Assembly (NCBI RefSeq): GCF_003334305.1
Contig: NZ_QOWS01000011.1
Length of the DNA stretch: 64,000 nt
From: Escherichia coli
GTDB taxonomy: Bacteria; Pseudomonadota; Gammaproteobacteria; Enterobacterales; Enterobacteriaceae
Reading direction: 5' to 3' (one strand)
Below the pieces are notes generated by a model. That model was given only the letters and a program-made list of their open reading frames with translations. It was not told where the DNA came from and made no database searches. Of the stretch, positions 78-26,943 are shown piece after piece (the first letter of the stretch is position 1; every line of letters begins with the position of its first letter). The translations under genes and the position numbers were made by a program.

Positions 78-153
78 TCAATCTGCATTCTCACCGAACT
101 TACTCGAACGCCCACGTCTGGAAAGCCATCTACAAAAACTCCTGACCGATGCC

Positions 154-1083: not shown

Positions 1084-1097
1084 TTCCTGTTTTATTC

Positions 1098-1124: not shown

Positions 1125-1183
1125 GCTCATTGATTCTTTTCTGTGTATCAAAGTCATCATTCCCATCTGATAACCTATCGAAA

Positions 1184-1627: not shown

Positions 1628-1631
1628 AACG

Positions 1632-1982: not shown

Positions 1983-2536
1983 TATCCCTCCACCATCTGA
2001 CGCCACATGGCTTCATGTGGACGGGCAATCACCGACCGATAGACCAACAAACCTTTTTCCCCCGCACGCTCGCTGGCGACAGAGACCGCGTTATTAACAT
2101 CTGAAATATCGCCAGCAACCACCATGTAGCATTTACCGCCAATGCCAAAAGCCATATGTACGCGAACGAGAATGACATTCGCAGCTTTGACAGCACAATC
2201 GGCAGCGTCAATGCAGGCGGCGACACTCCAGGTTTCGACTACGCCGACAGCCCGGTGCTGCTCAACATGGTTAAGTCCGCTGATTGCAGTAAGGAGGCTG
2301 GGATGAATATTCGGCAGGACAAGACTGTCGACCAGCATTTCACCAGCAAGGGACGCTCCGCTGTTGATGGCCTGTTGCACCGCGCCCACATCGCCACCGA
2401 GCATCAGCAGAAATTTTCCGGGGCATAGCGTTTTGCTGACCAGTAACTCAACGTTGGCGCTTTTCAGCATGGCGTCGCCGGTTTCCATCCCTTTCGCGAT
2501 ACTGCTAAGTTCTAAAATACCTACCGCTTTCGACAT
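1982..2536 (-). CDS. pduT: PduT, microcompartment shell protein with tandem BMC domains
   Basis: 184 aa, two BMC-domain repeats ([10 protein letters not shown]... and [11 protein letters not shown]...); position between pduS and pduU. Confidence 0.85.
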
Positions 2537-2538
2537 GG

Positions 2539-3882: not shown

Positions 3883-4991
3883 AACAACTCCTCGAGCAGT
3901 TCTGCAATTGCGGAGGCATCAGCCGCACGCGGGTTGGTACGCAACGTTGCATCCGCCAGTGCCGCCTGAACCATATCTGGTATGCGTATTGACCATTCTG
4001 CTTTTTTTTCTTTCAGCGCATTAGCAAAAGTCGGCAGCGTACAGGTTGTTTTAAGCTGCTCAATATGTTGAATAAGTGCATTCAGGCTGGCGGTGTCATT
4101 GGCGTTGTCCGGGCATAAATGGCACGTTTTCGCCAGCCGGGCATAGCGTTTGGCTGTGCGCGGATCGCCAGCATTAAAGCGGATAACTGCCGTGAGCAGG
4201 AGCGCATTCGCCAGTCCATGCTGCAGATGAAACTGTCCGCCGAGTTGATGAGCAATTGCATGGTTTAAACCGAGTCCGGCCTGGCTAAAGGCCATTCCTG
4301 CAAGCGTCGATGCATTATGCATTTTGCCACGGGTGGCAAGACAATCGCCTTTTTTCACTGCAGTGGGCAGGTATTGAAAAACAATTTGCACGGCTTTTTC
4401 GACCAGTGCATCCGTGAAGTCGCTGGCGCGAGGAGAAACATAAGCTTCAAGCGCATGGGTTAAAACATCCATCCCGGTATTGGCCGTTATCGCCGGTGGC
4501 ACGCTGACGATCAGAGATGGATCAAGGATCGCGATATCCGGATAAAGTGCATTATCGAAAAGGGGATATTTAATCCCTTTCTCAGGATCGCTGATGACAC
4601 AAGCACTGGTCACTTCGGAACCGGTACCGCTGGTGGTAGGAATGGCTACGCAGGTTTCAATTTCAATGCCACACTGGCGACCGAACCAGACAATCGCTTT
4701 TGCGGCGTCCAGGGCAGAACCGCCGCCAAAACCGATAACCACATCCGGGCGTAAAGTCTGCATTTGCGCAATGCCTTTCACCACGGTCTGGATAGTTGGG
4801 TCGGGCGTTATTTCGCTAAAAATACTAAGACGATTACTGTCGGGCAGCGCCTGATGCAACGTGTTAATGAGTGGTGAGCGTGCCAGAAAGACGTCGCAAA
4901 TAATCCAGATGTGTTTATGAGAGAAACGGCTAATTACCTTGAGACTTCCCGGTCCGCTGTATAAACGCGTCTGCAGTGAAAAAGTATTCAT
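3879..4991 (-). CDS. pduQ: PduQ, iron-dependent 1-propanol dehydrogenase
   Basis: 370 aa; Fe-ADH motif GFGGGSALDAAKA; operon position. Confidence 0.85.
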   Translation of the reverse strand: MNTFSLQTRLYSGPGSLKVISRFSHKHIWIICDVFLARSPLINTLHQALPDSNRLSIFSEITPDPTIQTVVKGIAQMQTLRPDVVIGFGGGSALDAAKAIVWFGRQCGIEIETCVAIPTTSGTGSEVTSACVISDPEKGIKYPLFDNALYPDIAILDPSLIVSVPPAITANTGMDVLTHALEAYVSPRASDFTDALVEKAVQIVFQYLPTAVKKGDCLATRGKMHNASTLAGMAFSQAGLGLNHAIAHQLGGQFHLQHGLANALLLTAVIRFNAGDPRTAKRYARLAKTCHLCPDNANDTASLNALIQHIEQLKTTCTLPTFANALKEKKAEWSIRIPDMVQAALADATLRTNPRAADASAIAELLEELL

Positions 4992-5001
4992 TTCCGTTTC
5001 T

Positions 5002-6387
5002 CTAGCGAATTGAAAAGCCGCTGGTTAACACGCAGCGTCGTGAGCGGGCAAAAGTCCGTGCTGACGTTGTCCCTTCTCCGGTCGGTGTTGCAATGGTAAA
5101 GGTCGTAAAGCCTTCGCCGCCGACGCCAATACCCGCCCAGGAGGGGCCGTTTTTGACAAAGATTGAGGTTTGCATAACGCGTGCGGCAAGGTTGAGCCGT
5201 GAGACGTTCTGCGAGTGCATAATTGCCGTGTGGTGCAAGCCGTCTTCCACTTTCAGTGCCAGGGTGAGAGCGCTATCAAAATCGTTGACCTTCACAATGG
5301 GCAGCATTGGCATCAGTTGTTCACAAGTAACCCAACTATCATTGGCGTCGACAACAGCAATCAGTAGGCGCGGCGCTTTTGCGGGCAAAGGGAGGCCTGC
5401 CGCTTCCAGCAAGGCTGATGGGCTTTTCCCAACCAGTTTTTTGTTGGCGCTACCGTCTGGCAGGCAAATTGCACGCAATTTCTCAGTTTGCTCATAGTTA
5501 AGAAGAAGTGCGCCAAAACTTTGCATCTGCTGAATTAAATAATCTGCCACTGATGCCACGACAATCAGGCTTTTTTCAGCAATACACGGCAGGTTGTAAT
5601 CAAATGAAGCGCCGTTGATGATGTCCTCGGCGGCTTTCACAATATCCGCCGTTTCATCGACGATGCACGGAGGGTTACCCGCTCCGGCACCAATCACTTT
5701 CTTGCCACTTTTCATTCCCATGGCGACGATCCCCGGACCGCCGGTAATCGCCAGAACGCTGATTTTAGGGTGCGCCATCATCTGTTCGGTGGCAGCAAAG
5801 GTCGGTTCAGATACGGTAACGATCAGGTTATGAATGCCACTACAGCGAAACGCGATGTCTTCGATTGTGGTAATCAGTTTTAACGAAACGTTTTTGGCAC
5901 CCGGGTGTGGACTGAAGTAGACGCTATTACCTGCTGCCAGCATGCTGATGCTGTTGTTAATGATGGTTTCCGTGGGGTTGGTGCTTGGCGTGACCGAGCC
6001 AATCACCCCAAACGGAGAGTACTCAAACAAAACCATGCCACCATCACCGGTTAGTGCTGTGGTGGTTAAATCTTCAATTCCTGGCGTGTTATCAAGTGCC
6101 GCTTTGTTTTTTAGGTACTTATCTTCTTTATTTCCCATCCCCGTTTCTTTGGCGCTTTCTTCTGCCAGTTCGGTAAGGCGGGGCATTAATTCTTCGCGAA
6201 TGGCGCTGATAATGGCGCTACGGGTTTTAAGCGGACACTGTTGAAAGCGTAAAAAGGCCTGGTGTGCTGCGCAGACCGCTTCATCAACAGTCTGGAAAAT
6301 AGCGTTTCTTTGCGTTCGTGGTGTAGCGGGGACAAGTTGCTCGCGCAGAATATTGCGGATCAGTGTTTCTAATTCAGAGTTATTCAT
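5002..6387 (-). CDS. pduP: PduP, CoA-acylating propionaldehyde dehydrogenase
   Basis: 461 aa; starts MNNSELETLIRNIL, close to recalled Salmonella PduP; aldehyde-dehydrogenase fold motifs (GAGNPPCIVDETAD). Confidence 0.85.
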   Translation of the reverse strand: MNNSELETLIRNILREQLVPATPRTQRNAIFQTVDEAVCAAHQAFLRFQQCPLKTRSAIISAIREELMPRLTELAEESAKETGMGNKEDKYLKNKAALDNTPGIEDLTTTALTGDGGMVLFEYSPFGVIGSVTPSTNPTETIINNSISMLAAGNSVYFSPHPGAKNVSLKLITTIEDIAFRCSGIHNLIVTVSEPTFAATEQMMAHPKISVLAITGGPGIVAMGMKSGKKVIGAGAGNPPCIVDETADIVKAAEDIINGASFDYNLPCIAEKSLIVVASVADYLIQQMQSFGALLLNYEQTEKLRAICLPDGSANKKLVGKSPSALLEAAGLPLPAKAPRLLIAVVDANDSWVTCEQLMPMLPIVKVNDFDSALTLALKVEDGLHHTAIMHSQNVSRLNLAARVMQTSIFVKNGPSWAGIGVGGEGFTTFTIATPTGEGTTSARTFARSRRCVLTSGFSIR

Positions 6388-7391
6388 TGGTTTACTCCCA
6401 CGTTAATTGCCGCCATTGCGCTTTGAGCAATATCCATGTCTTGTTCAACGCTACCGCCGCTGATGCCAAGCCCGCCAAGCAATTTTCCGTCACGCCAGAG
6501 GGGGAAGCCGCCACCAAAAGTGACGACTTTGCCTTGCATATGGCTTTCGAGCCCGTAAAGCGGCGCGCCGGGTTGCACGGTATCAGCAAGTTTGTGGGTT
6601 GCCGTTTTCATCGCCACGGCGGTCCAGGCTTTTTTCGGTGCCAGTTCACTGCTGACCAACAGGGCATCAGGCATCCGCCAGGTAACACTTTCTGTTCCGT
6701 TGGCATCAACAATGCTGATGACAACGGGAATATGCAGTTCATCCGCGCGCATTGCCGCACTACGAATGAGCTGGTGAAGATCCTGAAAAGTGAGCGGCAT
6801 TGTGCGTTCCTTCAATGCTGGTATGTGGTTGGCTTCGTGATAACGTTTTGTGATTTCCTGAATCATCAGGTTTTGATGAGCAACGTTGTCTTCCACGCGG
6901 GCGAGGGCATACAGACAATCGGAAAGTCGGTTGATATAGTGCAGCAAAACATTCCGGACGGTGGTTTCCGTTGTCAGTTCAACCAGACGTCTTTCAGCCC
7001 GTCGAGCCACTGTGCGGGCGAAATGCATGCGGCTCGCGGCTTCACATCGACCAGGCAGAATGAAGCTGTGAACTGGGGGGACGGCGTTCATTGCGCTATC
7101 GATCGCGTTTTCCAGCGCAGCAATTTCTTCCGTACCGATGTAACGCTGTTGCGCTGACGGCTGTTCACTTTCACTGGCGAGTTCGGCGCTAAACCAAAAT
7201 ATCTGTTGTTGAATGGCTTCCAGTAAGATGCGATGGCTTTCGATGGCGGTGGCGCAATAACACAGACTGAGTGTCGCGTTCAGTTCATCCAGCGTGCCAT
7301 AGGTTTCGACACGTAGATGAGTTTTGCTGACGCGCTGTCCGGTAAATAAAGACGTACTTCCTGAATCACCTGTTCGGGTATAAATTGCCAT
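6384..7391 (-). CDS. pduO: PduO, ATP:cob(I)alamin adenosyltransferase
   Basis: 335 aa; N-terminal PduO-type motif IYTRTGDSGSTSLF; overlaps pduP start by 4 nt. Confidence 0.85.
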   Translation of the reverse strand: MAIYTRTGDSGSTSLFTGQRVSKTHLRVETYGTLDELNATLSLCYCATAIESHRILLEAIQQQIFWFSAELASESEQPSAQQRYIGTEEIAALENAIDSAMNAVPPVHSFILPGRCEAASRMHFARTVARRAERRLVELTTETTVRNVLLHYINRLSDCLYALARVEDNVAHQNLMIQEITKRYHEANHIPALKERTMPLTFQDLHQLIRSAAMRADELHIPVVISIVDANGTESVTWRMPDALLVSSELAPKKAWTAVAMKTATHKLADTVQPGAPLYGLESHMQGKVVTFGGGFPLWRDGKLLGGLGISGGSVEQDMDIAQSAMAAINVGVNQ

Positions 7392-7402
7392 CTTTTAGCT
7401 CC

Positions 7403-7678
7403 TTAGCGCGAAAGCGTATCGACAATGCCGACCACTGCCAGGTCGATGGCCTCGTTAGGGCCTGAAAACACATGTCTGGCGCTGGAACCACTGCTGAGGA
7501 GTACCAACTCACCAACGCCTGCGCCGACTGAATCAACGGCAACTTCGTCGCCGGTTAATGGCGTGAGAGGCAGTTCGCCGTCAGCACTGATCCGGCGAAC
7601 CAGCAGCAGTTTTTTCCCGATCAGAGAAGGTGATTTTTGCGTGGATACTACCGCGCCAGTGACTCGAGCCAGATGCAT
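7403..7678 (-). CDS. pduN: PduN, microcompartment vertex (EutN/CcmL-family) protein
   Basis: 91 aa; [15 protein letters not shown]... typical EutN/CcmL pentamer sequence. Confidence 0.85.
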
Positions 7679-7681
7679 AAG

Positions 7682-8173
7682 TTACTCCTGCCTGATTAAC
7701 TGAATATTTCGGGTAATTGCCGCTTCACGAGCCAGTGCGGTCACACAACATTTCCGCTGTAAAACCAGTATTCCCGAGCTTAACTGTGCGATATCGGCAT
7801 AACTTAAAAGTCGATCACGATGAAGGTAGATCGGTTGCCCTTGTTCGTCGCACCAGCTTAGCGGTAGACGGGCGAGAGTCTTCAATTCAATGGCGTTCAG
7901 GAAATGACGCTGCAACGACAATTGAATGTGCAATCCCCAGGCTAACGCTTCGTGTATCTGAATCGCTGCTCGATCTGACGTTTCGTTCTCCGCAAGTTGT
8001 CGCAGCAGCGGCAGATCGACATATCGGATTTGTAATGACGCATACTGATGAACGCTCTCTTGAACGCTGGCGTCTCGCAGTTGAAAAACAGTCAGCACGA
8101 GTGTTTTTCCCGCACGTTGTTTAAGGCGAAAAACCACTTCGTCAACAATACGTTGCATCAGCATGTTATTCAT
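7682..8173 (-). CDS. pduM: PduM, microcompartment structural protein
   Basis: 163 aa, operon position between pduL and pduN; no catalytic motif. Confidence 0.75.
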   Translation of the reverse strand: MNNMLMQRIVDEVVFRLKQRAGKTLVLTVFQLRDASVQESVHQYASLQIRYVDLPLLRQLAENETSDRAAIQIHEALAWGLHIQLSLQRHFLNAIELKTLARLPLSWCDEQGQPIYLHRDRLLSYADIAQLSSGILVLQRKCCVTALAREAAITRNIQLIRQE

Positions 8174-8802
8174 GGCACTGACACCAGTGTGGCAAAAACG
8201 TCAGGGCTATCAGCGCCTGCGGCGTTGGCCTCATCGGTATCAATATGCATTTCAAGACGCATATCCGGAGAGACGCGAACAGCGACGTTTTCGAATATCA
8301 GTCGTCGCTCATCACCTTCAATGGCAACCGCCACTTTATCGCCATGCGTAACGCCATAAATCAGGGCATCCAGCGGAGACATATGAATATGCCGTTGCGC
8401 GACAATAACGCCAGATGTGATCTCCAGTTCCGCAAATGGGCTTATCAAACGAATCCCCGGAGTGCCGCTGAGATCGCCTGACATGCGTAGCGGGGCGGTG
8501 ATCCCTAACGTTCTGGCGTCCGTCCGGGAAATTTCCACCTGACTTGCATTGCGTAGCGGCCCCAACAAGCGAACGTTGTGCAATTTGCCTTTTGGTCCCT
8601 CCAGCGTAACAACCTGTTCCGCAGCGTATTGGCCAGGTTGCATTAACGGCTTTTTCTCGCTAATCGGTTGTTCAGGAAAAAGACGCAAATAATCCGCTGT
8701 TGAAAGATGTATATGGCGACTGGAAACGCCCAGTGGGATAGGGCGCTCGCGCATCTCATCCAGAATCTGGTTCACTGTTTCCTGCAAGGTTTGTTTATCC
8801 AC
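8170..8802 (-). CDS. pduL: PduL, phosphate propanoyltransferase
   Basis: 210 aa; starts MDKQTLQETVNQILDEM; size and position match PduL. Confidence 0.85.
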   Translation of the reverse strand: MDKQTLQETVNQILDEMRERPIPLGVSSRHIHLSTADYLRLFPEQPISEKKPLMQPGQYAAEQVVTLEGPKGKLHNVRLLGPLRNASQVEISRTDARTLGITAPLRMSGDLSGTPGIRLISPFAELEITSGVIVAQRHIHMSPLDALIYGVTHGDKVAVAIEGDERRLIFENVAVRVSPDMRLEMHIDTDEANAAGADSPDVFATLVSVP

Positions 8803-8804
8803 TG

Positions 8805-9227
8805 CTACTCCCCTCGCTTATTGGCGTACAGGCAAAGTGAGCGGGGCTCACCTTTTTGCCGCTGACATGCCGGGTCAAGACACAAATTACAACTGATAAT
8901 CTCTGAGGTGACGGTTGTTGCTGGTGTTTTGCTTGTTTCAACCGTCACGGTCAATGCTTCAGTTGTGTGGGGCAGAATGCCGTCTCCCGGGCGGGCAATC
9001 ACTTTGTGTGCGACAAGGCCATTTCGCTGTCCGGCGAAACTGGCTCCCGTCGCGATCGCCGCATTAACCGAGGCGACGTCACCGGTGATTTTGATGAGCG
9101 TCCAGCCTGAGCCATTGGTCTTCTCAAGGCCAACCAGCGTGATGGACGCGGCTTTTGCCATAGCGTCTGCGCAACTGATGGCGAGAGCCAGACCACTGAC
9201 TTCAAGTAATCCCAGTGATTGCTTCAC
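8805..9227 (-). CDS. pduK: PduK, microcompartment shell protein with C-terminal Cys-rich extension
   Basis: 140 aa; N-terminal BMC domain (LGLLEVSGLALAISCADAMAKAA), C-terminal tail with CNLCLDPACQ...C. Confidence 0.8.
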   Translation of the reverse strand: MKQSLGLLEVSGLALAISCADAMAKAASITLVGLEKTNGSGWTLIKITGDVASVNAAIATGASFAGQRNGLVAHKVIARPGDGILPHTTEALTVTVETSKTPATTVTSEIISCNLCLDPACQRQKGEPRSLCLYANKRGE

Positions 9228-9250
9228 GCTGTGCTCCTTAGTAAATGGGG

Positions 9251-9526
9251 TTATGCCGATTTAGGTAAAATAGCCTCAACATCACTGTGTGGGCGCGGGA
9301 TGACATGGCAGGATTTCACTTCGCCAACGGCGCTTGCGGCGGCGCTTCCTGCGTCAACGGCGGCTTTTACTGCGCCAACATCGCCACGGACCATCACTGT
9401 AATCAGACCCGAACCAATCTTTTCATAGCCAACCAGTTGCACGTTGGCGGATTTAACCATGGCATCTGCAGCTTCAATTGCGCCAACTAACCCTTTTGTT
9501 TCAACCAGTCCTAGTGCGTTGTTCAT
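9251..9526 (-). CDS. pduJ: PduJ, major microcompartment shell protein
   Basis: 91 aa; canonical BMC domain [26 protein letters not shown]. Confidence 0.9.
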
Positions 9527-9545
9527 ACAGCGTTTCTCCTGTGGA

Positions 9546-9896
9546 TTATGAGTGGCATTCCCTGAAGGGAATGCCTTTTACCAGGCGGGCAGCGTTATTG
9601 CCGATGCTGCGCCGGGTATGGTTATCTTGTTGATACATCAGCGTAAACAGTGGCGCTGATGCCGGTAAGTTTTTGTAATGCACAATCAGCTTTTCCCGGT
9701 CGCAGGCTATGCCAACCAACAGGGGGGACTGACGAGCAGCCTGCCAGGCGCTATCGATGACTTCACCTGACGGGATATGTTGAATGCGAAAGGGGATGCC
9801 TTCCTCTTCAATGCCAAGAAGCACCTCATTCCATGTACTGATACAGTCACCTATTTCCGTAACGACAATAGCGGGCGTATGTTCTTTACTTTCCAT
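9546..9896 (-). CDS. pduH: PduH, diol dehydratase reactivase small subunit
   Basis: 116 aa; position after pduG with overlapping start/stop. Confidence 0.8.
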
Positions 9897-11718
9897 GAGC
9901 CAACTCCCTGTGCCAGGAAATCAGTAGCCCGGTAGCTACCGCATTGCGCGGGCCTTCACTACCACGGATATTCCCCCGTCCGGCGACCAATCGATAATGC
10001 GCCAATGCATCGGTGACTAACTGCGGGACTTCGAAATCCAGGGAAGAACCGCCCACCAGAACGACGAACGGAATATCGCGAATATTTCCGCCTGGACTTA
10101 CCTGACGTAGCGCGCGCAGGGCATTGGTTACGAAGACGCGCTCTTTCGCACTGCGGCGAACAGCACGTACTTTTTCCTGTGTTAAATCGCCGGGAATAGG
10201 CACCAGTTCGTCAGGTTTCACCACACAAACGCGGGCAAATACATGAGGGGACAGCGGAGTAGGGAAGAACTGAACGCTTCCGTCTTCATGGCGTAAATGG
10301 AACAGGCTTTCTACTTTTGCCAACGGGTATTTTTTGATTTCTTCTGCCAGATAACGATCATTTAAGCCCAGCTCACGAGCGATAATCATCGTTACCATGT
10401 CGCCCGCTCCCGCAAGGTGAGTGGCAACGATTTCCCCACTCTGATTGATGATGGAGGCATCGGTAGAGCCTGCACCTAAGTCCAGAATTGCCAGTGGACG
10501 TGTGGTTCCAGGGGTAGTCAAGGCCCCCTGAATGGCGGCTTCTGCTTCTGCGCCTCCGACCTGAACATCAACATGCAGTTTTTGCTTAATTTCACTGGCG
10601 ATCATCGCCATTTGCAGACGGTCGGATTTCACCATAGAGGCAATACCCACAGCCTGTTCCAGTGAAAATTCACCTGCCAGACCACCGGTTACGCTGACGG
10701 GGACAGAGGTATCTATCGCCAGCAAATCCTGAATAAAAATTTCGTTGCTGGGTTTGTTGGTCAGTTCCGCCATGGTCTGGCGAACATGTTCCAGCATTCC
10801 GCCGATGTTGGTGCCTGGTTCTCCCGTCACGTTTTCCAGTTTTGGGCACTCACCGACCGCTTTCATAATGGCATCGGCACCAGCAGCTACATCAACGCGC
10901 GTTGTGCGCCCGGCAGAAAGCAGTTCGATATTTCCGGCGGGTATCGAACGGGCTTTAACGTCGCCAGAGGGCGTTTTCACTACCACTGCTGAACGGTTGC
11001 CGATTAGCGCCCGCGCGACAGGAACAATATTTTTAGTCTCTTCAGCATTGAGGGCGAATACGGTGGCAATCCCATACGGGTTAGACAGGGTTTCGATAAC
11101 TTTCCCGGGAACGGCAACTTCAATTGCTGCCAGCATGCCGAGCGGAATACGATCGATGTAGAGGACTTCATCCACAATAGGTAAAGGAATTTCCAGGCGG
11201 TTATTGACCAGTACGCCATCGTCGCGTTGCAGAATAACGCCAGTCAGCTGATATCCGGCGCGTACGGAGGCGTTTATCATCGTCGCGATATCGGCAAAAT
11301 CAAATGCCGATGACACCACCAGGATGTAAGGTGTGTCCGCCGGGCGTGTTAATAACTCTTGCGGAGTGATGGTGAGCCCTACGCCCAGCCCCACTCCGCC
11401 CGGAGTTTTCGGGTTGTGACCGATCATGGTTGATTCGGTGATGATAGTTTCAGTGATGGTTTCCATCGCCACATCACCAATGACCGGAGTTGCTTCGTTG
11501 ATACGAATAAGCGAAATATCGCTAACATTGATGCCGACTTTTTTCGTTGCCTGTGCGAGCGCCTCCTGAATACCATGGACGTTACGCAACGTACCTTTAA
11601 TTCCGGTGGTTTCCGCCAGGGCGCTACTCACGAACGACAACTCTCCAGTTGCACTGAGCGTTGCCAGCGCAACCTCTGTTGATGAGTTGCCGATATCAAT
11701 GCCTGCTATATATCGCAT
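9886..11718 (-). CDS. pduG: PduG, diol dehydratase reactivase large subunit
   Basis: 610 aa; starts MRYIAGIDIGNSSTEVALA (actin/HSP70-like ATPase fold); size matches PduG. Confidence 0.9.
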   Translation of the reverse strand: MRYIAGIDIGNSSTEVALATLSATGELSFVSSALAETTGIKGTLRNVHGIQEALAQATKKVGINVSDISLIRINEATPVIGDVAMETITETIITESTMIGHNPKTPGGVGLGVGLTITPQELLTRPADTPYILVVSSAFDFADIATMINASVRAGYQLTGVILQRDDGVLVNNRLEIPLPIVDEVLYIDRIPLGMLAAIEVAVPGKVIETLSNPYGIATVFALNAEETKNIVPVARALIGNRSAVVVKTPSGDVKARSIPAGNIELLSAGRTTRVDVAAGADAIMKAVGECPKLENVTGEPGTNIGGMLEHVRQTMAELTNKPSNEIFIQDLLAIDTSVPVSVTGGLAGEFSLEQAVGIASMVKSDRLQMAMIASEIKQKLHVDVQVGGAEAEAAIQGALTTPGTTRPLAILDLGAGSTDASIINQSGEIVATHLAGAGDMVTMIIARELGLNDRYLAEEIKKYPLAKVESLFHLRHEDGSVQFFPTPLSPHVFARVCVVKPDELVPIPGDLTQEKVRAVRRSAKERVFVTNALRALRQVSPGGNIRDIPFVVLVGGSSLDFEVPQLVTDALAHYRLVAGRGNIRGSEGPRNAVATGLLISWHRELAHGK

Positions 11719-11727
11719 AGTTCGTCC

Positions 11728-12246
11728 TTAATCGTCGCCTTTCAGTTTTTTGCGCTCGACATAAAGTTCCGCAGCTTCACGGACAAATGCAGCACAAATT
11801 TTGGCCTGATAACGCTGTTCAAGATCGTCAGCAATGGCAATAAGTTCTTGCTTAGTTGAACGATAAGGGCGTAACGCATTGTAGATTTCGAGGATGCGAT
11901 CATCTGGTACTGAGGTAAGCTCAGCGGCGCGTTCAAAATTCATCGCCAGACGATCGCGACCAGCATCTCTGGCAATCGCAGCCTGAATACGCAATGTTTC
12001 AGGGGTAATGCGCATATCCAGGGCGGTGACGTTATCGCTTAGCACATTTTCCAGAGTGAAATCGTCGAGCGTTTTATTGGTCGCTGTTTTAACCCATTCC
12101 GGATGTTTATTTGCCAGCGGGTAATCCGTCACTTTGGCGCTCAGTATTGATGCGTTGGGGACCGCAGAAACAGGAGCTGCATCCTGTAAACTGTTCATGC
12201 GGTTCAACACGTCCCTGACCATCGACTCAATTGCATCGGTATTCAT
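11728..12246 (-). CDS. pduE: PduE, B12-dependent diol dehydratase small subunit
   Basis: 172 aa; position after pduD. Confidence 0.85.
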   Translation of the reverse strand: MNTDAIESMVRDVLNRMNSLQDAAPVSAVPNASILSAKVTDYPLANKHPEWVKTATNKTLDDFTLENVLSDNVTALDMRITPETLRIQAAIARDAGRDRLAMNFERAAELTSVPDDRILEIYNALRPYRSTKQELIAIADDLEQRYQAKICAAFVREAAELYVERKKLKGDD

Positions 12247-12260
12247 GAAGGTTTCCTTTG

Positions 12261-12929
12261 TTAAAACGTCACGCGCAGTTCTTGCGGTTTTTTGCCAGTG
12301 ACCACGTACTTCGTCTCTTTAATATGCAAAATGGCAGATTTGGCCTGGTATTTCGGCCGCGCCATTTGATCGTTGAGGGTCGGCACCGGTTGTGGAGACT
12401 CGCGCTTCGCATAACGCGCGGCGTTTTTGCCAATCTGACGATAAGTATCCAGCGTCAACAAAGGCGCTTGTGGGAAAAGTTCCAGGTTAGACAAGGGAGG
12501 AAGTCCCTGCTGGTGGATAACCGTTGTGCCTTTCGACTGAATACCGATAGCAATACCTGAACCACTAAGACGATCGCCTTCGACTGCTACGAATGCGACA
12601 TCGGACGATTTAAAGCAGCGAATCACACGGGCTTTAATGCCTTCTTCTTCGATACCGGCAATCACTTCGCGCAAGATGTTTTTATGCGGAATACCGATGA
12701 TATTGACGGTTTGCGCCAGGCCGAACGCCGGGCCTACAGCAATAATGACTTCATCTTGCTGAGTGCCTTGTTGGGCTTCGCCAATTTCGGTCAGAAAATT
12801 TCCGGTATCTGGCGCGGAAGAGACAGTTGCAGAGACAGGTGCGCGAAATGAAACGGACTTGTCGCTGGGTTGCATTTCTGCCAGCACGTCTTCGATAATC
12901 TGACGCAGTAATTTTTCGTTAATTTCCAT
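12261..12929 (-). CDS. pduD: PduD, B12-dependent diol dehydratase medium subunit
   Basis: 222 aa; starts [19 protein letters not shown]. Confidence 0.85.
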
Positions 12930-12938
12930 TTCTCACCC

Positions 12939-14603
12939 TTAGTCAATTTCGTTGGGATCAAGTGCACCGGGAATATTTTTGATCTCTTCCCAGCGTTCCC
13001 CTTGCAGGCGGTAACCTGTAGCCGGTCCGGCGTAATCATTGACGTCATTGACCGCAGAGAGCACTTGTCCGTCATCGACGATGATGGCTGAGGTATGGAG
13101 ATAATCGCCGGTCAGTTTTGCTTTTTGCATGTTGAGCATGTCCTGGGCGACATCGGTAAAACCGCCTTGCGCCAGGGCTTTCACCACTTCCAGGCTGTTC
13201 CGGTTTTTATTGATAATCTCCTGGGCGAACTTGATGTCTTCCACAATATTGCGCTCAGGCATATCTTTTGAACCGTGGGCATAGGTTGCCGCTTCGACTT
13301 CTTCATCGGTAATAGGCGGTAGTCCCATACCGGCAAAGACAGCCTGTAAAGCGCGAGCGGCTTTATTGCGGATAGCGATAACATCTTCTTCGCGTACTGG
13401 TCGCAGCCCACCATCAACCTTCAGGTCACGCTGAATGACGTTGTAATCATCGAAGTCTTCAGCATCTTCGTTTGAACCAGCAAACATGTTGTCGTAGTTC
13501 GGCACAGCGGAAAAACCGGAAGAGATAAAGTCGGTGCCTGGCAGAAATTGCATCAGGAAACGTGCGGTACGGCGCATATCCGAGTGGGTAAAGGTCTGGT
13601 CATTACTGGAGGCGCATTCCAGATCCAGCGATGAGCAAATTAAGTTTTCCGCTAATACTGCGCGGATGCCTGATGGCACAGCTGATGGAACACCGATGCA
13701 GCTTACCGAACCATTCTGCAGACCCTGAACGCCTGCGGCTTTGGTGATGTAAATGCAACGAGCCTCGAGGTAAAGCATTGATTTGCCTTCCGCGTAACCC
13801 ATCTGTACTTCAGAGCCGGAGCCGGAAGTAAAGCGCATTTTTAAGCCACGAGAAGCATAGGATGACGCGAGAAACCCTTTTGACCACGGGGTATCATCAC
13901 CATCGGTGAAAACAGGTTCTGTACCATAGACAGAAATTGTTTCGGCGTAACAGGTGTGGCCTAACATACCGAGTTTCAGTTCGGTGGCTTCTTCCAGTGA
14001 ACACTGGGTCAAGACGCCCGGACGTCCCACCTGTGAGCCGACCAGCAGGGCGATGGCGTTGAACGGTGCATAGCGAGCAACGGCAACGGTGGTTTCCTGT
14101 TCATCAAACCCGCGCCATGCGCCTTCAGCTGCGTCGGCGGCAATTTGTACTGGGTTATCTTTGACGTTGGTGACATGAGCCTGTTGTGATGGTGTTCGAC
14201 GGGCGCGCATTTTCTGCATCGCCATCATCATCTCTACCACGTTCATCTGCGAAACCACTTCGACGATTTTTGCAGGCGTCATTGCTGTGGTAAGGGGAAC
14301 GATATCGCTACGTTTGACATTTGGATCGCACAACATATTGGCAAGTTTTACCGAATCCATCGCGATGACTTCTTCGGCGCGCGCGAGATTGATGCCGTAG
14401 CGGGCGATAAAGTGGTCGATCAGGTCAAACTGGCTGGCGGGTTTTCCATCCAGTTCGGTAACGACGCCGTTAACAATTTTGATTGACGGTTTAGGATCGT
14501 TCGGGCTTTCCATCGCAATAAAGCCTTCTTCAATCCACTCTTTAACGAAACCGTCCTGGTTGACCGGGCGTTTTGCCAGTGCTTCAAATCTTTTCGATCT
14601 CAT
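12939..14603 (-). CDS. pduC: PduC, B12-dependent diol dehydratase large subunit
   Basis: 554 aa; starts MRSKRFEALAKRPVNQDGFVKEWIEEGFIAMESPNDPKPSIKIVNG, near-identical to recalled Salmonella PduC. Confidence 0.95.
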   Translation of the reverse strand: MRSKRFEALAKRPVNQDGFVKEWIEEGFIAMESPNDPKPSIKIVNGVVTELDGKPASQFDLIDHFIARYGINLARAEEVIAMDSVKLANMLCDPNVKRSDIVPLTTAMTPAKIVEVVSQMNVVEMMMAMQKMRARRTPSQQAHVTNVKDNPVQIAADAAEGAWRGFDEQETTVAVARYAPFNAIALLVGSQVGRPGVLTQCSLEEATELKLGMLGHTCYAETISVYGTEPVFTDGDDTPWSKGFLASSYASRGLKMRFTSGSGSEVQMGYAEGKSMLYLEARCIYITKAAGVQGLQNGSVSCIGVPSAVPSGIRAVLAENLICSSLDLECASSNDQTFTHSDMRRTARFLMQFLPGTDFISSGFSAVPNYDNMFAGSNEDAEDFDDYNVIQRDLKVDGGLRPVREEDVIAIRNKAARALQAVFAGMGLPPITDEEVEAATYAHGSKDMPERNIVEDIKFAQEIINKNRNSLEVVKALAQGGFTDVAQDMLNMQKAKLTGDYLHTSAIIVDDGQVLSAVNDVNDYAGPATGYRLQGERWEEIKNIPGALDPNEID

Positions 14604-14621
14604 AAATCTGCCTCAGAGAAT

Positions 14622-15434
14622 TCAGATGTAGGAAGGGCGATCGTTTTTCGGTGTATCGCCGAGAGTCGAAAGCACGGTTTTACCGATTTCGCGTGCGGAG
14701 ATGACCGCCTGGCGGACTGCGCCGGAGTCACCCGAGATAATCAGAATGACTTCATTGCTGTAGCTGGTGCCTTGAGCGGGGGAGCTGTATGCCACAACAT
14801 CCACATTGGCGGACTTCAGCGCGGTGTCGGCCATCAGAACACCCACAGCGGCTGGAGCGCCGACAATAACGCCGCAAGCCCGTCCCAATGGTGCACCAAA
14901 CGCTTTTTCCAGTGCATAGCTGGCGCGGGCGGTATATTGCAGCTCAAGATGTCCGGCTTCGTTGGCATAGACATCGCCAAAGGTCCGATCGAGTTCTTTC
15001 AGGGCGACTTCAATACCGCGTTTCACGTCAGAAACATCGTTGCCACCTAAGAGGATCAATGAGCCATGTCCGGCACCGCCTTTAGTATCCCGAGGAAGTT
15101 CAATGCTAATAACTTCAGTGTTGGTGGCTTTTACCGCTTCATCAGCGGCCATAATGTGTGGCCCTGCGCCAATACGCGCACCCAGAATGCCAATGGAACG
15201 ATAGCGTTTTTCAAGTTTCATCGCGTCCAACAGGGCGCTATCAACGTTCGCAATGACCAGACCTACAGTGTCGCCAATAGCGGTGCCAACAAATTCCGTT
15301 AACGTGCAGCTTTTTTCTGCCATAGCCGTCTCTCGTGTTTGATGAGTGGTTTCCGGGAGAACCTCATGCTCTGGCGTCGCTACGCGAGCGATGACCTGCG
15401 CCATGATCTGTTCGACCAGTTCATTGCTGCTCAT
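14622..15434 (-). CDS. pduB: PduB, microcompartment shell protein (tandem permuted BMC domains); internal start for PduB' at 15323
   Basis: 270 aa; in-frame Met at codon 38 ([13 protein letters not shown]) corresponds to the PduB' start described in Salmonella. Confidence 0.9.
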
Positions 15435-15715
15435 GGGTTAATTCCCTTTGGTAAGATTTTTTCGACATCGGTATGTGGGCGGGGAATAACGTGTACGGCT
15501 TTTACTTCACCGACGTTACGCGCAGCTGCGGCACCTGCGTCTGTTGCCGCTTTTACCGCCCCGACATCACCACGAACGATGACGGTCACCAGCCCGGAAC
15601 CTATTTTTTCGTAGCCGACCAGCAAAACATTTGCCGACTTCACCATGGCGTCTGCGGCCTCTATGGCGGCAGTTAAGCCTTTGGTTTCTACCATTCCTAA
15701 CGCTTCTTGTTGCAT
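15431..15715 (-). CDS. pduA: PduA, microcompartment shell protein
   Basis: 94 aa; [30 protein letters not shown], canonical BMC domain; first gene of operon. Confidence 0.95.
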
Positions 15716-16226
15716 AAAGACCTCGCCTGGATTTTTTTGACGATATGACTATAAAAAAAAGCGAGGAAAAAGAATGGCTGACTTAATCGGCTAATGAGAA
15801 AAATTAATAGAGAACAAATATTATAAAATTGCTTTTATGAACTATATGTTGTTAATTTATTAGTTGTTTTGTGGATATTTCAATGTGAATTAATTGCGTT
15901 GGCTAGTGAGTTTAATCGCGAGTAATATTTCGTTGAGTTTAGTTCGAGGAAGGAACTGTGATATTTGTTTCAATTTTATTATATCATGATGGCAATTTTT
16001 TATTGTGAAAGTTTGACAGTAATTATTACTTTCAACACTGATTAACGCTGTGTTGCATGATTCGGCAATGACAATAATTTGTTATGTTAGCACGATTTTT
16101 ACACGAGTCTGTCATGCATGTTGGCAATATTTTCTGCAGAGCAATTTTTTATAGTTGCGCTCGGTATACACAACAATCAGCGCATAGTTGGCTGATAAAG
16201 AAAAACTCCGTAAAGAAGGTGTCACT
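15716..16226. promoter_or_regulatory. divergent pduA / pduF control region (expected PocR-dependent promoters)
   Basis: ~510 bp AT-rich non-coding spacer between divergently transcribed pduA and pduF; individual promoter elements not resolved by eye. Confidence 0.5.
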
Positions 16227-17036
16227 ATGAATGATTCACTCAAGGCGCAATGCGTTGCCGAGTTTTTAGGCACCGGACTGTTCCTCTTTTTTGGCATCGG
16301 TTGTTTGTGCGCCCTGAAACTTGCCGGGGCAAGTCTGGGACTGTGGGAAATTTGTATCATTTGGGGGTTAGGGATTTCGCTTGCTGTTTACCTTACGGCA
16401 GGTATTTCCGGCGCTCATCTCAACCCGGCTGTTACCATTGCTCTGTGGCTGTTTGCCTCTTTCCCAGCCCGTAAAGTGCTGCCATTTTGTGTGGCGCAAT
16501 TAGCGGGTGCCTTTGGTGGTGCGGTTCTGGCATATTCTCTATACAGCAGTTTGTTTACCGATTTTGAATCTGCTCACAATATGGTGCGTGGTAGTGCAGA
16601 AAGTTTACAACTCGTCAGTATCTTCAGTACTTATCCGGCAGCGGCGATTAATGTATGGCAAGCTGCGTTGGTCGAAGTGGTCATAACGTCCATGTTAATG
16701 GGGTTGATTATGGCGTTGACCGATGACGGTAATGGCGTACCCAAAGGACCGCTTGCACCTTTACTTATTGGTATTCTGGTTGCTGTTATTGGTGCTTCTA
16801 CCGGACCATTAACCGGTTTTGCCATGAATCCAGCGCGTGATTTTGGACCTAAGATTTTCACCTGGCTTGCGGGGTGGGGAGAAATTGCGATGACTGGTGG
16901 ACGCAATATTCCTTATTTCATTGTACCCATTATTGCACCGATCATTGGGGCATGTGTTGGTGCGGCGATTTATCGCTATCTCATTGCAAAGAATTTACCT
17001 GTCAATAGTGTTACACCTAAAGGAATTAGCGAATAA
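16227..17036 (+). CDS. pduF: PduF, propanediol diffusion facilitator (MIP/aquaglyceroporin family)
   Basis: ATG at 16227 with GAAGGTG upstream gives 269 aa starting MNDSLKAQC; NPA motifs (HLNPAVT, MNPARD). Confidence 0.9.
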   Translation: MNDSLKAQCVAEFLGTGLFLFFGIGCLCALKLAGASLGLWEICIIWGLGISLAVYLTAGISGAHLNPAVTIALWLFASFPARKVLPFCVAQLAGAFGGAVLAYSLYSSLFTDFESAHNMVRGSAESLQLVSIFSTYPAAAINVWQAALVEVVITSMLMGLIMALTDDGNGVPKGPLAPLLIGILVAVIGASTGPLTGFAMNPARDFGPKIFTWLAGWGEIAMTGGRNIPYFIVPIIAPIIGACVGAAIYRYLIAKNLPVNSVTPKGISE

Positions 17037-17238
17037 CGAAATACTCTGGCAGTTATAAACATTTATTTTTTTACTGTTTGTGATCTGCTTTCCGAACTTA
17101 TTAAAAAGTCTCCCGCTTCACGGAGGCTTTTGTTATTGTCCTTTGTGCTTCTCGTCAGTAAATCATCAGGGATGATGTGAAGATTAAATGTAAAACAATT
17201 GTTTTGCTATAACAATAAATTAACTGGGAGGTTTTATC

Positions 17239-18153
17239 ATGATTTCTGCGGCGACACTTAATTCAGAACTCATTAATAAAATCGCGCAGGATTTTGCGCA
17301 GGCGACCAGCCTTGCGGTTGTCGTGGTCAATATTCACGGCGATGAAATTTCCGAGCTGTTTAACTTCACTCCATTTTGTCAGATGATGCGGCAACACCCT
17401 CAGCTAAGCACTCGATGTCGCATGAGCGATCGTTGTGGGGGCCTGGAAGCCTCTAAATCCGATCAGCCTTGTATTTATCGCTGTCATGCCGGATTAACCG
17501 ATTTCTCTATTCCACTGGTAATCGCCGGACATTTAGTCGGTTTTGTATTGTGCGGGCAAGTTCGTCTGCGTAATGATGATGTCGATTTGGTCGATATTCT
17601 GAATGTCGATGATTGCTGGCAGGCAGATCCCGAATTACTTAATGAATTCCGCAAAGTTCCTGAGATGGATTACTCAAGAGTTATGGCCTCTGCTGATTTG
17701 TTGAAGTTGATTGTGGAAAATTGCCTCAAAAAACAACTCAATTTTGTGGTTATTAAAGAGAACAAATCTCGGTCAGATTCGGTGCGCCAGACTCGTGCGC
17801 CTAATCCCCACGACAATAAAATGAAAAAAGCTTTACGCTATATTGATGCGCATTTATCAGACGATTTGCGTCTGGAAGATGTCGCCTCGCACGTTTATCT
17901 AAGTCCTTATTATTTCAGTAAGTTATTCAAGAAATACCATGGAATCGGTTTTAATGCGTGGGTAAACCAACAACGGATGGCCAGCGCTCGTGAGTTACTG
18001 TGCCATAGTGACTGGAGCATCGCCAGCATTGCGCGTAATTTAGGTTTTTCGCAAACCAGTTATTTTTGCAAAGTTTTCCGTCAGACTTATCAGGTTACGC
18101 CGCAGGTGTATCGACAGCAAGTGAGTGAAAATGCGGCGATGGAAACGGTATAG
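17239..18153 (+). CDS. pocR: PocR, AraC-family activator of pdu/cob genes
   Basis: 304 aa; MISAATLNSELINKIAQDFAQA..., C-terminal AraC-type HTH; close to recalled Salmonella PocR. Confidence 0.9.
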   Translation: MISAATLNSELINKIAQDFAQATSLAVVVVNIHGDEISELFNFTPFCQMMRQHPQLSTRCRMSDRCGGLEASKSDQPCIYRCHAGLTDFSIPLVIAGHLVGFVLCGQVRLRNDDVDLVDILNVDDCWQADPELLNEFRKVPEMDYSRVMASADLLKLIVENCLKKQLNFVVIKENKSRSDSVRQTRAPNPHDNKMKKALRYIDAHLSDDLRLEDVASHVYLSPYYFSKLFKKYHGIGFNAWVNQQRMASARELLCHSDWSIASIARNLGFSQTSYFCKVFRQTYQVTPQVYRQQVSENAAMETV

Positions 18154-18269
18154 AATAAATGCTAAAAAAAGGGAAGGTTTAAATAAACGCTGGAATGAAT
18201 AATTAACGTTATTTACGTGTTATGGGAAAAGTGAAATCAGCTCATAACATACGCTGACAGGTGTGGCAC

Positions 18270-18470
18270 ATTTGTGCCTGGGAAGAGGGTGAAAATCCCT
18301 CGCAGCCCCCGCTGCTGTAATGCTGACAAACCCGAAAATGCCACTGATCGCGAGATTGGGAAGGTCGGGTGAGGATGACGCTAAGCCAGAAGACCAGTCT
18401 GTCAGTCAATACCAACAACTTCGGTGGGAAGTGGGTTGCCCGGAAGCGTCCGGTAGAGTACTGGCGCGTC
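18270..18470 (+). ncRNA. cobalamin (AdoCbl) riboswitch-like leader, cob-operon type
   Basis: Conserved riboswitch core GGAAGAGGGTGAAAATCCCTCGCAGCCCCCGCTGCTGTAA at 18281-18320, GCCACTG at 18340-18346, B12-box-like AGCCAGAAGACCAG at 18383-18396; boundaries approximate. Confidence 0.6.
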
Positions 18471-18565
18471 TTTATACCCCTACCACCCTGAAAGGATCAG
18501 GGTATGGCGGCATCATTTAGTTCTTTCATCGCAGTGCCGACAGGCACCAGGGCTGCATTCAAGGT

Positions 18566-19072
18566 GTGGCAATATTGTTTCATGGCTTATCAACCAGACC
18601 GCCATTACAGGAAATTAAGTGGAGGGCGAGAGGCATGAAAACGATAAAACCCGAATCGATAGCTCTTTTTTGCCTCTTATCTGGAGATGTGGATCTGGCG
18701 AAACATCTGGCTGAAATATTGCCAATAACCTGTTTTGTTGGTGAGGACTGGCAGCAAGATTTCCAGCCTCTTGATGGTGGGCCTGTGCAATCGTTATCAG
18801 ATGCGTATAGCGATTATTCAGTGCTGCTATTGATAGCAGCTGAAAGCGAGATATCCGTACCAGAATGGCTCGCTCATTCTGAGGGAACGACGGTAATTTT
18901 GATTGCAGAACACAATGCCCGTTTGCTGACTGGTCCGGCTGGTGGGGCTGTAGCATTAATCCATTATCTGAATGAAATCTGTCATTCCAGAGAAACCGCT
19001 GTCAATGACGCATTTTGTCAGACGTTAACACGAGGAAGTCTGGCTATTCCACATAGCCATCTTCTTTCGTAA
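18566..19072 (+). CDS. hypothetical protein (168 aa), unassigned ORF at the position occupied by cbi genes in Salmonella
   Basis: ORF track only; no motif recognised; sits between riboswitch-like leader and cobU. Confidence 0.3.
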   Translation: MAILFHGLSTRPPLQEIKWRARGMKTIKPESIALFCLLSGDVDLAKHLAEILPITCFVGEDWQQDFQPLDGGPVQSLSDAYSDYSVLLLIAAESEISVPEWLAHSEGTTVILIAEHNARLLTGPAGGAVALIHYLNEICHSRETAVNDAFCQTLTRGSLAIPHSHLLS

Positions 19073-19205
19073 TGGATTGAGAATGCTGGATTTTTAATTA
19101 TATTACGCGCAGTATTAATCGCGTAAATGTTTTGCGGTCAGCAACGGTGGGGGATCCATTGTTCTGTTCAATGAATACCATCATACAATTGAATCAGGAG
19201 TCGGT

Positions 19206-19751
19206 ATGATGATTTTGGTGACGGGGGGCGCACGGAGCGGGAAGAGTCGCCATGCAGAGGCGCTTATTGGGGACTCTTCACAGGTTCTGTATATCGCCAC
19301 CTCACAAATCCTTGATGATGAGATGGCTGCACGGATAGAACATCATCGGCAAGGCCGCCCGGCGCACTGGCGCACGGTGGAGCGTTGGCAACATCTTGAT
19401 GAATTAATTCATGCAGACATTAACCCGCATGAGGCTGTATTGCTGGAATGCGTTACCACCATGGTGACTAATCTGTTGTTTGATTATGGCGGCGATAAAG
19501 ACCCTGATGAATGGGATTATCAGGCGATGGAACAGGCGATTAATGCTGAGATTCAGTCGTTGATTGCTGCCTGCCAACGTTGTCCCGCAAAGGTTGTATT
19601 AGTGACTAACGAAGTGGGAATGGGGATTGTGCCGGAGAGTCGTCTGGCACGACATTTTCGTGATATTGCCGGGCGGGTAAATCAGCAGCTGGCCGCTGCG
19701 GCAAATGAAGTATGGTTGGTGGTTTCGGGTATTGGAGTAAAAATCAAATGA
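19206..19751 (+). CDS. cobU: CobU, adenosylcobinamide kinase / adenosylcobinamide-phosphate guanylyltransferase
   Basis: 181 aa; P-loop [16 protein letters not shown] 8 nt upstream. Confidence 0.9.
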
Positions 19752-22634: not shown

Positions 22635-22710
22635 TGGCTCCTCTGACTGGACTCGAACCAGTGACATACGGATTAACAGTCCGCCGTTCTACCGACTGAA
22701 CTACAGAGGA
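22635..22710 (-). tRNA. asnV: tRNA-Asn (GUU)
   Basis: 76-nt reverse complement of TCCTCTGTAGTTCAGTCGGTAGAACGGCGGACTGTTAATCCGTATGTCACTGGTTCGAGTCCAGTCAGAGGAGCCA; anticodon loop CTGTTAA. Confidence 0.95.
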
Positions 22711-25043: not shown

Positions 25044-25119
25044 TGGCTCCTCTGACTGGACTCGAACCAGTGACATACGGATTAACAGTCCGCCGTTCTA
25101 CCGACTGAACTACAGAGGA
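25044..25119 (-). tRNA. asnU: tRNA-Asn (GUU)
   Basis: Sequence identical to the tRNA at 22635-22710. Confidence 0.95.
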
Positions 25120-26867: not shown

Positions 26868-26943
26868 TCCTCTGTAGTTCAGTCGGTAGAACGGCGGACT
26901 GTTAATCCGTATGTCACTGGTTCGAGTCCAGTCAGAGGAGCCA
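26868..26943 (+). tRNA. asnW: tRNA-Asn (GUU)
   Basis: TCCTCTGTAGTTCAGTCGGTAGAACGGCGGACTGTTAATCCGTATGTCACTGGTTCGAGTCCAGTCAGAGGAGCCA, identical to the other two copies. Confidence 0.95.

Follow-up and report, generated by a model that had tools for sequence, protein, structure and literature searches.

The window analysed here, a stretch of 64,000 nt from Escherichia coli (RefSeq assembly GCF_003334305.1, contig NZ_QOWS01000011.1), carries between pocR and cobU an open reading frame (ORF) at positions 18566-19072 that the initial annotation had left unassigned. This ORF is the front third of cbiG, coding for the N-terminal domain, and comparative tests indicate that its cbiG-derived part has been kept as coding sequence under moderate to weak purifying selection throughout Escherichia. 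As to its identity the ORF is unremarkable, and database names already imply it; the unusual feature, as far as sequence comparison can tell, is that a single-domain relic behind a conserved riboswitch has stayed under purifying selection across the genus.

Identity and extent of the ORF

The open frame was confirmed from GTG 18566 to TAA 19070-19072 on the plus strand (168 codons), exactly where it had been placed initially, but its 5' limit had to be revised. Homology to CbiG begins at ATG 18635, and the frame upstream of it (18566-18634, plus strand, 69 nt) contains stops in five of five other Escherichia lineages, which rules out GTG 18566 as the start and leaves this N-terminal extension of the 168-aa version outside the conserved gene. 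A Shine-Dalgarno sequence, GGAGG or GGAG, precedes ATG 18635 in five of six lineages (GGAGG at 18621-18625 in the window), with the G-run GGTGGGGG instead in E. fergusonii. The conserved form, in the following called ORF2 (18635-19072, plus strand), comprises 145 codons plus TAA. RefSeq annotates it with the same borders as WP_000849054.1 (145 aa), under a name that alternates across genomes between 'hypothetical protein' and 'cobalamin biosynthesis protein', and its product includes the peptide SLSDAYSDYSVLLLIAAESEISVPEWLAHSEGTTVILIAEHNAR.

Comparison with NCBIfam NF004463 (CbiG) led to a match over positions 1-125 of 351 (E 1.6e-19) with 70.3 bits, which does not reach the curated cut-off of 546 bits. 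When 80 cobU loci with 10-kb flanks from species-representative genomes were searched by tblastn, residues 1-112 of the ORF corresponded to the first ~119 residues of CbiG with 43-46% identity (E 1e-17 to 1e-23) at about 50 enterobacterial loci from Citrobacter, Salmonella, Klebsiella, Raoultella, Kosakonia, Buttiauxella and other genera, every match starting from residue 1 and lying at the cbiG position about 8.1 kb upstream of cobU. ORF2 is thus a homologue by descent of the CbiG of Salmonella, Citrobacter and Klebsiella, with the same start codon and the first residues M-x-T-x-KPESIALFCL, and its locus keeps the upstream cbiF 3' end with the Shine-Dalgarno sequence. With a profile built from the Escherichia alignment, nhmmer extended the cbiG match to native codon ~134, about window position 19012, so that the cbiG-derived part of ORF2 covers 18635-19012 on the plus strand (~126 residues; native codons 1 to ~134 with shared in-frame deletions). 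A word-indexed protein search with the ORF returned Escherichia and Shigella copies only, an exhaustive search of representatives added just distant CbiG proteins, and a profile including the ORF matched PDB entry 3EEQ (E 1.5e-13). The label 'unassigned' falls with this clear similarity to a known protein, on whose absence the initial annotation had itself made the label depend. Its suggestion of an unrelated small gene now under B12 control holds for the position behind a conserved riboswitch and the cbiA initiation region, but not for the descent, which is from cbiG.

Selection on the cbiG-derived part

Besides E. coli, the arrangement of ORF2 behind a short frame (ORF1, described below) was found in E. 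whittamii, E. marmotae, the divergent 'E. coli E69', E. albertii and E. fergusonii. As these lineages were retrieved via CobU or PocR and not via the ORF, the openness of the frame is free of ascertainment bias. Selection was analysed across the six lineages with a pairwise rather than tree-based maximum-likelihood codon model (own GY94/F3x4 script) on three phylogenetically independent pairs. For the cbiG-derived part (alignment columns 1-118), omega, the ratio of non-synonymous to synonymous substitution rates, was 0.45, 0.26 and 0.27, and likelihood-ratio tests (LRTs) against omega = 1 gave p values of 0.023, 7e-5 and 2e-6. The tail of about 30 codons (columns 119 to the end, including the last few cbiG-derived codons) had an omega of about 1, and the +1 and +2 frames gave values of at least 1. 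Nei-Gojobori estimates agreed, with the strongest constraint in codons 1-70 (omega 0.16-0.3). Synonymous divergence between E. coli and the four closer lineages was 0.27-0.47 and so of similar size to that of the flanking unconstrained DNA; in raw differences, the pocR-riboswitch spacer, the remainder of ORF1 and the ORF2 tail reached 20-28%, compared with 11-16% for ORF2 codons 1-70.

The pattern of lesions points in the same direction. All indels in ORF2 are multiples of three, compared with intergenic indels of 1, 3-4, 6 or 11 nt, and no in-frame stop was found across the six lineages, with 8-14 stops in each of the other two sense frames. With substitutions placed at random, the probability of seeing no stop was 0.07, 0.11 and 0.00085 in the three pairs, with a product of ~7e-6. 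The comparison of codon usage with neighbouring genes, as the initial annotation had proposed, gave a log-odds score of +0.09 bits per codon for frame 0 versus about -0.5 for the other frames, and higher scores for cobU and pocR (+0.23 to +0.25). With omega significantly below 1 in the annotated frame only, all indels in frame and no stops, the non-coding alternative considered initially is not supported. Among features expected of a remnant, truncation is present (145 versus 351 residues), decay of the frame is absent, and in the comparison between lineages neutrality is confined to the tail.

Distribution and age

Of 5426 complete E. coli genomes, 644-645 carry the full region; they are about the same set as the pdu carriers (638 genomes hold at least 80% of window positions 1-18200). 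The flagged kilobase is identical across many E. coli strains, and ORF2 is intact in seven of seven sampled E. coli alleles. Protein clusters place intact ORF2 (144-156 aa) on contigs of E. fergusonii, E. albertii and E. marmotae, hundreds for each species, and on no fewer than 1000 E. coli contigs, and disruption of the reading frame was seen only where larger deletions had removed the pdu region. Natural alleles with a shortened tail exist (P0004, 136 aa; P0219, 134 aa).

Other E. coli strains retain shorter pieces: only the 3' end from 18901, adjoining insertion sequence (IS) fragments, in K-12-like and O104 strains, the 3' end from 18946 in O157, and the 3' end from 18732 in about 200 genomes. 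In the K-12-like, O104 and O157 strains this stump runs to 19205 with 92-95% identity, lies directly upstream of cobU and is called a pseudogene by RefSeq. It is the same DNA as the 3' part of ORF2, of which ORF2 is the complete form; the 5' two-thirds, ORF1, riboswitch, pocR and pdu operon were removed by IS-associated deletions. The roughly 200 genomes with the 3' end from 18732 share a recurrent haplotype (E. coli H5, L095 2207-2841) in which a single deletion joins pduV' to ORF2 codon ~34, takes out the pdu operon, pocR, riboswitch and ORF1 and creates a 119-aa chimera (P0200) present on at least 1000 contigs.

ORF2 varies between 144 and 156 codons across lineages. Relative to CbiG, a deletion of four residues (in AAESEISV----PEW) and another of one residue are common to all six lineages, as is the spacing between the cbiA and cbiG starts (131 versus 130 nt). 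The shared deletions together with the shared spacing imply that the truncated form predates the divergence of the six lineages.

Two species retain the fragment where the genes behind it are damaged. In E. fergusonii (L086 11039-12129) the pdu operon, pocR, riboswitch, ORF1 and ORF2 are kept and cobU, cobS and cobT are gone; ldtA follows 226 nt past ORF2, and the cbiG fragment is the sole cobalamin-type gene left behind the riboswitch. An E. albertii strain (L087 7826-9265 and 4989-5797) has a 16-nt deletion near the start of cobU and has lost cobT, with ldtA directly after cobS, yet its riboswitch and 144-codon ORF2 are intact despite the broken cobU. In the same E. albertii strain pduF is split into pieces of 221 and 48 aa.

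Riboswitch, expression platform and ORF1

The riboswitch-like leader noted initially proved to be a cobalamin riboswitch (RF00174) at 18242-18416 on the plus strand; it matches the whole model (1-189) at 107.8 bits, the gathering score being 31.5, and represents the former cob operon leader. The aptamer ends 150 nt before GTG 18566 on the same strand, and no gene lies between it and the old cbiA start at 18504. Its divergence is 5-6% to four Escherichia lineages and 13% to E. fergusonii, whereas flanking unconstrained DNA differs by 20-28%. The riboswitch reaches 105-113 bits in all lineages, and among them the intact copies of E. fergusonii, E. albertii and E. marmotae score 112.9, 105.4 and 105.6 bits. 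The expression platform (18417-18503, plus strand), recognized by identity to Citrobacter and by inspection of the sequence, diverges by 4-10% among Escherichia. It includes a 6-bp hairpin, CCCTGA-AAGGA-TCAGGG, at 18486-18502, whose loop, read from the sequence, contains the Shine-Dalgarno sequence that belonged to the cbiA start; computed folding of the platform RNA gave an alternative structure that likewise buries this sequence (z = -1.5, a value that says little on its own).

The initial annotation had put the ORF in the position of the first cbi gene. It does lie behind the leader, but the real cbiA start codon is ATG 18504, in another reading frame, where the start codon and two further codons survive at 18504-18512 (ATGGCGGCA, MAA) and open ORF1 (18504-18638, plus strand; 44 codons plus TGA, MAASFSSF...). 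Only codons 1-3 of ORF1 derive from cbiA. The ORF was rightly said to lack resemblance to the CbiA N-terminus, as no more than these three codons, in a different frame, remain of cbiA; the proposed tblastn comparison with CbiA gave no protein similarity in the region, and the three codons were found at the DNA level only, through a leader between pocR and cbiA of Citrobacter amalonaticus that is 84% identical to 18237-18512 and ends right after ATGGCGGCA. In Salmonella and Citrobacter the cob leader exerts translational control of cbiA through its riboswitch. Aptamer, platform, hairpin, cbiA ATG and two codons are kept here, after pocR; the regulated frame, however, is a 44-codon scrap overlapping cbiG' instead of the 459-codon cbiA followed by 16 further biosynthetic genes.

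The TGA of ORF1 and the ATG of ORF2 overlap as ATGA (18635-18638). Five lineages share the 44 codons and the 4-nt overlap; in E. fergusonii the frame runs to 49 codons and overlaps ORF2 by 20 nt, which is the native cbiF/cbiG arrangement. ORF1 is open in all six lineages, and its remainder diverges by 20-28% from the four closer lineages, like the flanking DNA, and by 58% from E. fergusonii. In some E. fergusonii alleles ORF1 and ORF2 are fused in frame (P0187, 199 aa). The data give no clear sign of selection on an ORF1 peptide: its omega of 0.3-1.0 is not consistently unlike 1 on only 44 codons, and no codon-usage signal was found for it.

Remains of the cbi operon

The locus is left over from the cbi part of the cob operon, originally 17 genes, and has the order leader, cbiA' (three codons), deletion 1, cbiF' (~37 nt), cbiG' (codons 1 to ~134), deletion 2, cbiP' (~140 nt) and cobU; the Citrobacter locus carries the complete series from cbiA to cbiL. 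Deletion 1 begins at cbiA codon 4 and stops ~37 nt short of the cbiF end; deletion 2 begins at about cbiG codon 134 and stops ~140 nt short of the cbiP end. Both are older than the separation of the Escherichia species. Where divergence has erased recognizable similarity, the end-points are accurate only to within 10-50 nt. The initial idea of a fusion remnant of deleted cbi genes was therefore borne out, ORF2 consisting of cbiG codons 1 to ~134, about 50 nt of junction and an out-of-frame 3' end of cbiP, preceded by the cbiA' and cbiF' scraps.

On the 5' side, the nhmmer matches to Citrobacter and Klebsiella begin 35-40 nt upstream of the cbiG ATG, in the cbiF end; together with GGAGG they define a cbiF 3' end with the native cbiG ribosome-binding site at about 18598-18634 (plus strand, boundary approximate). 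On the 3' side, the junction segment at 19013-19064 (plus strand) forms most of the ORF2 tail (omega ~1, divergence 27-28%); for this segment and for 18513-18597 blastn, tblastn and nhmmer found no match to a cbi gene. Then follows the cbiP remnant (19065-19205, plus strand), which supplies the ORF2 stop. It was recognized by nhmmer as the last ~146 nt of Citrobacter cbiP (L011 9855-10000, ending at the cobU start; E 3.9e-13) and by blastn, with 79-81% identity for 19175-19258; the search for CbiP similarity proposed initially thus succeeded with the nucleotide profile but not at the protein level (E 3.4). The cbiP frame in 19065-19205 is broken by stops, and the sense frame of ORF2 enters the remnant out of the cbiP frame, its TAA lying a few bases inside.

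A promoter-like site, TTGAGA-16-TATATT (10 of 12 matches), lies at 19077-19104 inside the cbiP remnant just past the ORF2 stop. An 8-bp inverted repeat, ATTACGCG ... CGCGTAAT, at 19104-19130 has no counterpart in native Citrobacter cbiP. The 3' stretch upstream of cobU is kept in nearly all E. coli, including K-12-like strains, with a divergence of 10-21%, below that of the ORF2 tail. cobU itself (19206-19751, plus strand) starts 133 nt downstream of ORF2. According to annotation and to 81-85% identity with the CobU of Citrobacter and Salmonella, it is the intact gene with which the surviving cobUST salvage operon begins. Its constraint is noticeably relaxed within Escherichia (omega 0.13-0.19 versus 0.05 for the E. 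coli-Citrobacter comparison and 0.03-0.05 for pocR).

The window is E. coli DNA, with stretches of 18-24 kb 100% identical to strain A7, and its gene order is pdu operon (minus strand), pduF, pocR (17239-18153), riboswitch, flagged ORF, cobU (19206), cobS, cobT, ldtA and tRNA-Asn. The intergenic region between pduF and pocR holds an Rfam match to the small RNA STnc230 (17095-17178, minus strand, 74.8 bits), found also in the E. fergusonii, E. albertii, E. marmotae and Citrobacter loci. Past ldtA lie three tRNA genes with identical scores (22638-22710, 25047-25119 and 26868-26940), tRNA-Asn according to RefSeq annotation of related strains, and the yersiniabactin high-pathogenicity island (irp1, fyuA, ybtE) and yeeO fall within about 22000-46000.

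Domain content and fold

ORF2 consists of the CbiG N-terminal alpha/beta domain and a junk tail of about 20 residues. The truncation point lies near the end of the N-domain, and the middle and the CobE-like C-terminal domains, i.e. two of three, are gone. An AlphaFold2 model (predicted local distance difference test, pLDDT, 74; predicted template-modelling score, pTM, 0.67) gave a compact alpha/beta domain followed by a long helix of low confidence, and the predicted fold resembles the N-domain of 3EEQ: in a fold search this CbiG homologue was the best template-modelling match (TMq 0.53, probability 0.99), with all E-values above 0.01. We regard the predicted structural match as supportive but not as independent proof.

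Compared with true CbiG (CbiG_N, CbiG_mid and CbiG_C), ORF2 keeps only native residues 1 to ~134 of 351 with the two shared in-frame deletions, and its constraint is 5-15 times weaker. Of the features of the family the homology is present, and the family score, the three domains, the motifs and the operon position are lacking; instead of lying between cbiF and cbiH, ORF2 follows ~37 nt of cbiF and is followed by ~140 nt of cbiP and then cobU. As two domains and the conserved motifs are lost and the rest of the pathway is absent, the ORF2 product should be no cobalt-precorrin-5A hydrolase, and from the sequence such activity is expected to be absent since the pathway that would make the substrate is missing as well. 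CobE of the aerobic pathway (PDB 2W6K, 3BY5) shows that one CbiG-type domain can exist on its own as a small protein within a cobalamin gene cluster; it differs from ORF2 in that it corresponds to the C-terminal domain of CbiG, exactly the part missing in ORF2; no relation between CobE and ORF2 was detected.

Possible role and alternative explanations

The best overall explanation, which we hold with about as much confidence as doubt, would be that ORF2 encodes a selected, riboswitch-controlled fragment, the CbiG N-domain, acting as an accessory protein. In Salmonella the PocR-dependent cob promoter sits between pocR and cbiA. Transcription from this promoter would yield transcripts carrying the riboswitch, which at scarce B12 would leave the old cbiA ribosome-binding site open, so that ORF1 would be translated. 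Ribosomes may then re-initiate at ATGA, aided by the native cbiG Shine-Dalgarno sequence, and produce ORF2. The product would be a stand-alone, catalytically dead CbiG N-domain, made when propanediol is present and B12 is low, with a putative non-enzymatic accessory role linked to the handling of corrinoids for the Pdu system; secondarily, translation may keep the riboswitch-cobUST mRNA covered by ribosomes. In a more specific form of this proposal, possible but in our estimate rather doubtful, the N-domain would have been co-opted after loss of the pathway, propanediol-induced and B12-repressed, for a new non-enzymatic role such as corrinoid binding or hand-over for the Pdu microcompartment or salvage. 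A co-opted role would explain the survival of the riboswitch in E. fergusonii with no cob gene behind it.

Several observations weigh against a selected accessory protein. Any specific biochemical role is speculation, with corrinoid handling a pure inference, and we know of no function of an isolated CbiG N-domain; the literature searched gave no description of the cbiG remnant, its conservation or a role of the isolated N-domain. Constraint on ORF2 is weak, as its omega of 0.26-0.45 compares with 0.02-0.07 for true cbiG and 0.03-0.05 for pocR (i.e. 5-15 times higher) and is about twice that of Escherichia cobU. Its GC content at third codon positions (GC3) has fallen to 0.36-0.38, compared with 0.77 in native cbiG, a drift as expected for a poorly expressed or relaxed gene. 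The seven E. coli alleles show 15 non-synonymous and 7 synonymous changes, and the resulting ratio of non-synonymous to synonymous polymorphism (pN/pS) of ~0.65 is indistinguishable from neutrality. Two motifs of the N-domain have been replaced, GATGIAVRVLAPL (GATGIAVR) by AAESEISV----PEW and LLSGHxGGAN by LLTGPAGGAV. Pfam matched neither the 168-aa nor the 145-aa form nor any of 11 Escherichia homologues; in the same alignment CbiG_N matched ten of ten sequences from other genera (full-length CbiG and fragments), CbiG_mid seven and CbiG_C six. The initial remark that no motif could be recognized is thus shared by Pfam, but NF004463 and direct comparison do reveal CbiG. The 5' part of the ORF has disappeared along with pdu from some 88% of complete E. 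coli genomes, where it is dispensable. Finally, cobUST appears to have a promoter of its own in the promoter-like site past the ORF, and K-12-like strains manage with that stretch, so that coupling to cobUST is not required.

A rival explanation is a translated spacer, in which selection keeps translation through ORF1 and ORF2 rather than the protein and thereby shields cobUST transcripts from Rho-dependent polarity, the amino-acid constraint merely reflecting harmless folding of an obligatorily made polypeptide. We consider this unlikely, although it ranks next after a role of the protein itself. Translational control of cbiA in Salmonella is polar on the downstream cob genes, cobUST is placed only 133 nt downstream of ORF2, and the riboswitch and the ribosome-binding-site hairpin are strongly conserved. 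ORF1 has stayed open with its stop/start overlap conserved despite a divergence of 20-28% and the lack of a codon-usage signal, and some E. fergusonii alleles join the two frames into one (P0187). However, E. fergusonii, which lacks cobUST, and E. albertii, in which it is broken, have kept the ORF and the riboswitch equally well, the ORF is separated from cobU by the promoter-like site, and K-12-type strains still have cobUST behind that stretch alone. Moreover, if only an open frame were selected, omega should be near 1 with stops absent, not 0.26-0.45 concentrated in the domain core. It is the retention without intact cobUST, together with the promoter-like site before cobU, that leads us to rank a role of the protein above a spacer.

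Neutral decay, ranked third and in our view still less probable, would make ORF2 a pseudogene fragment that is open by chance, its constraint being an artefact of few sequences, of the alignment or of residual ancestral codon structure. A truncated third of the enzyme is all that is left, the pathway has disappeared, Pfam is blind to ORF2, GC3 has collapsed, the within-species pN/pS is not significant and the tail is neutral; the ORF has also been lost from most E. coli without obvious consequence, and RefSeq calls the K-12-type stump a pseudogene. Against this stand three independent LRTs that reject omega = 1 in the annotated frame only, the low probability of an uninterrupted frame, indels that are all in frame, and lineages that were fetched via CobU or PocR without bias for openness, with the ORF intact species-wide in four further species. 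That the conservation stems from an overlapping feature is highly improbable, whether this were the 113-codon antisense ORF (18615-18956, minus strand) or a signal at the RNA or DNA level, for instance an internal promoter or a structure associated with the riboswitch: the antisense ORF is present in the window and the antisense frame sharing wobble positions has an omega of 0.35-0.5, but this is the expected mirror signal, weaker in every pair (LRT 3.7, 4.7 and 13.2 versus 5.2, 15.7 and 22.5), absent from the other antisense frames and based on 102-108 compared codons versus 114 in sense, which may reflect antisense stops in some lineages, homology to a known protein exists in the sense frame only, and a nucleotide-level element would not leave synonymous sites at about the rate of flanking unconstrained DNA. 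The antisense ORF was rejected as an explanation on account of its weaker mirror signal.

Implications

The older work of Lawrence and Roth on E. coli cobUST and the loss of the cob/pdu complex forms the relevant background. At base level the picture is that Escherichia lost de novo B12 synthesis and kept the cob leader, the riboswitch and cobUST. The finding opens no long-standing question, and with weak constraint its significance is modest; its practical value lies in the RefSeq annotation of ORF2 and in studies of propanediol use in pdu-positive E. coli. Unexpected is that the fragment appears constrained genus-wide whether or not cobUST survives. If the constraint holds, ORF2 would be, in E. 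fergusonii, the only gene between the conserved riboswitch and ldtA, and a clean natural example of a single domain of a biosynthetic enzyme that has outlived its pathway under the old regulatory signals.

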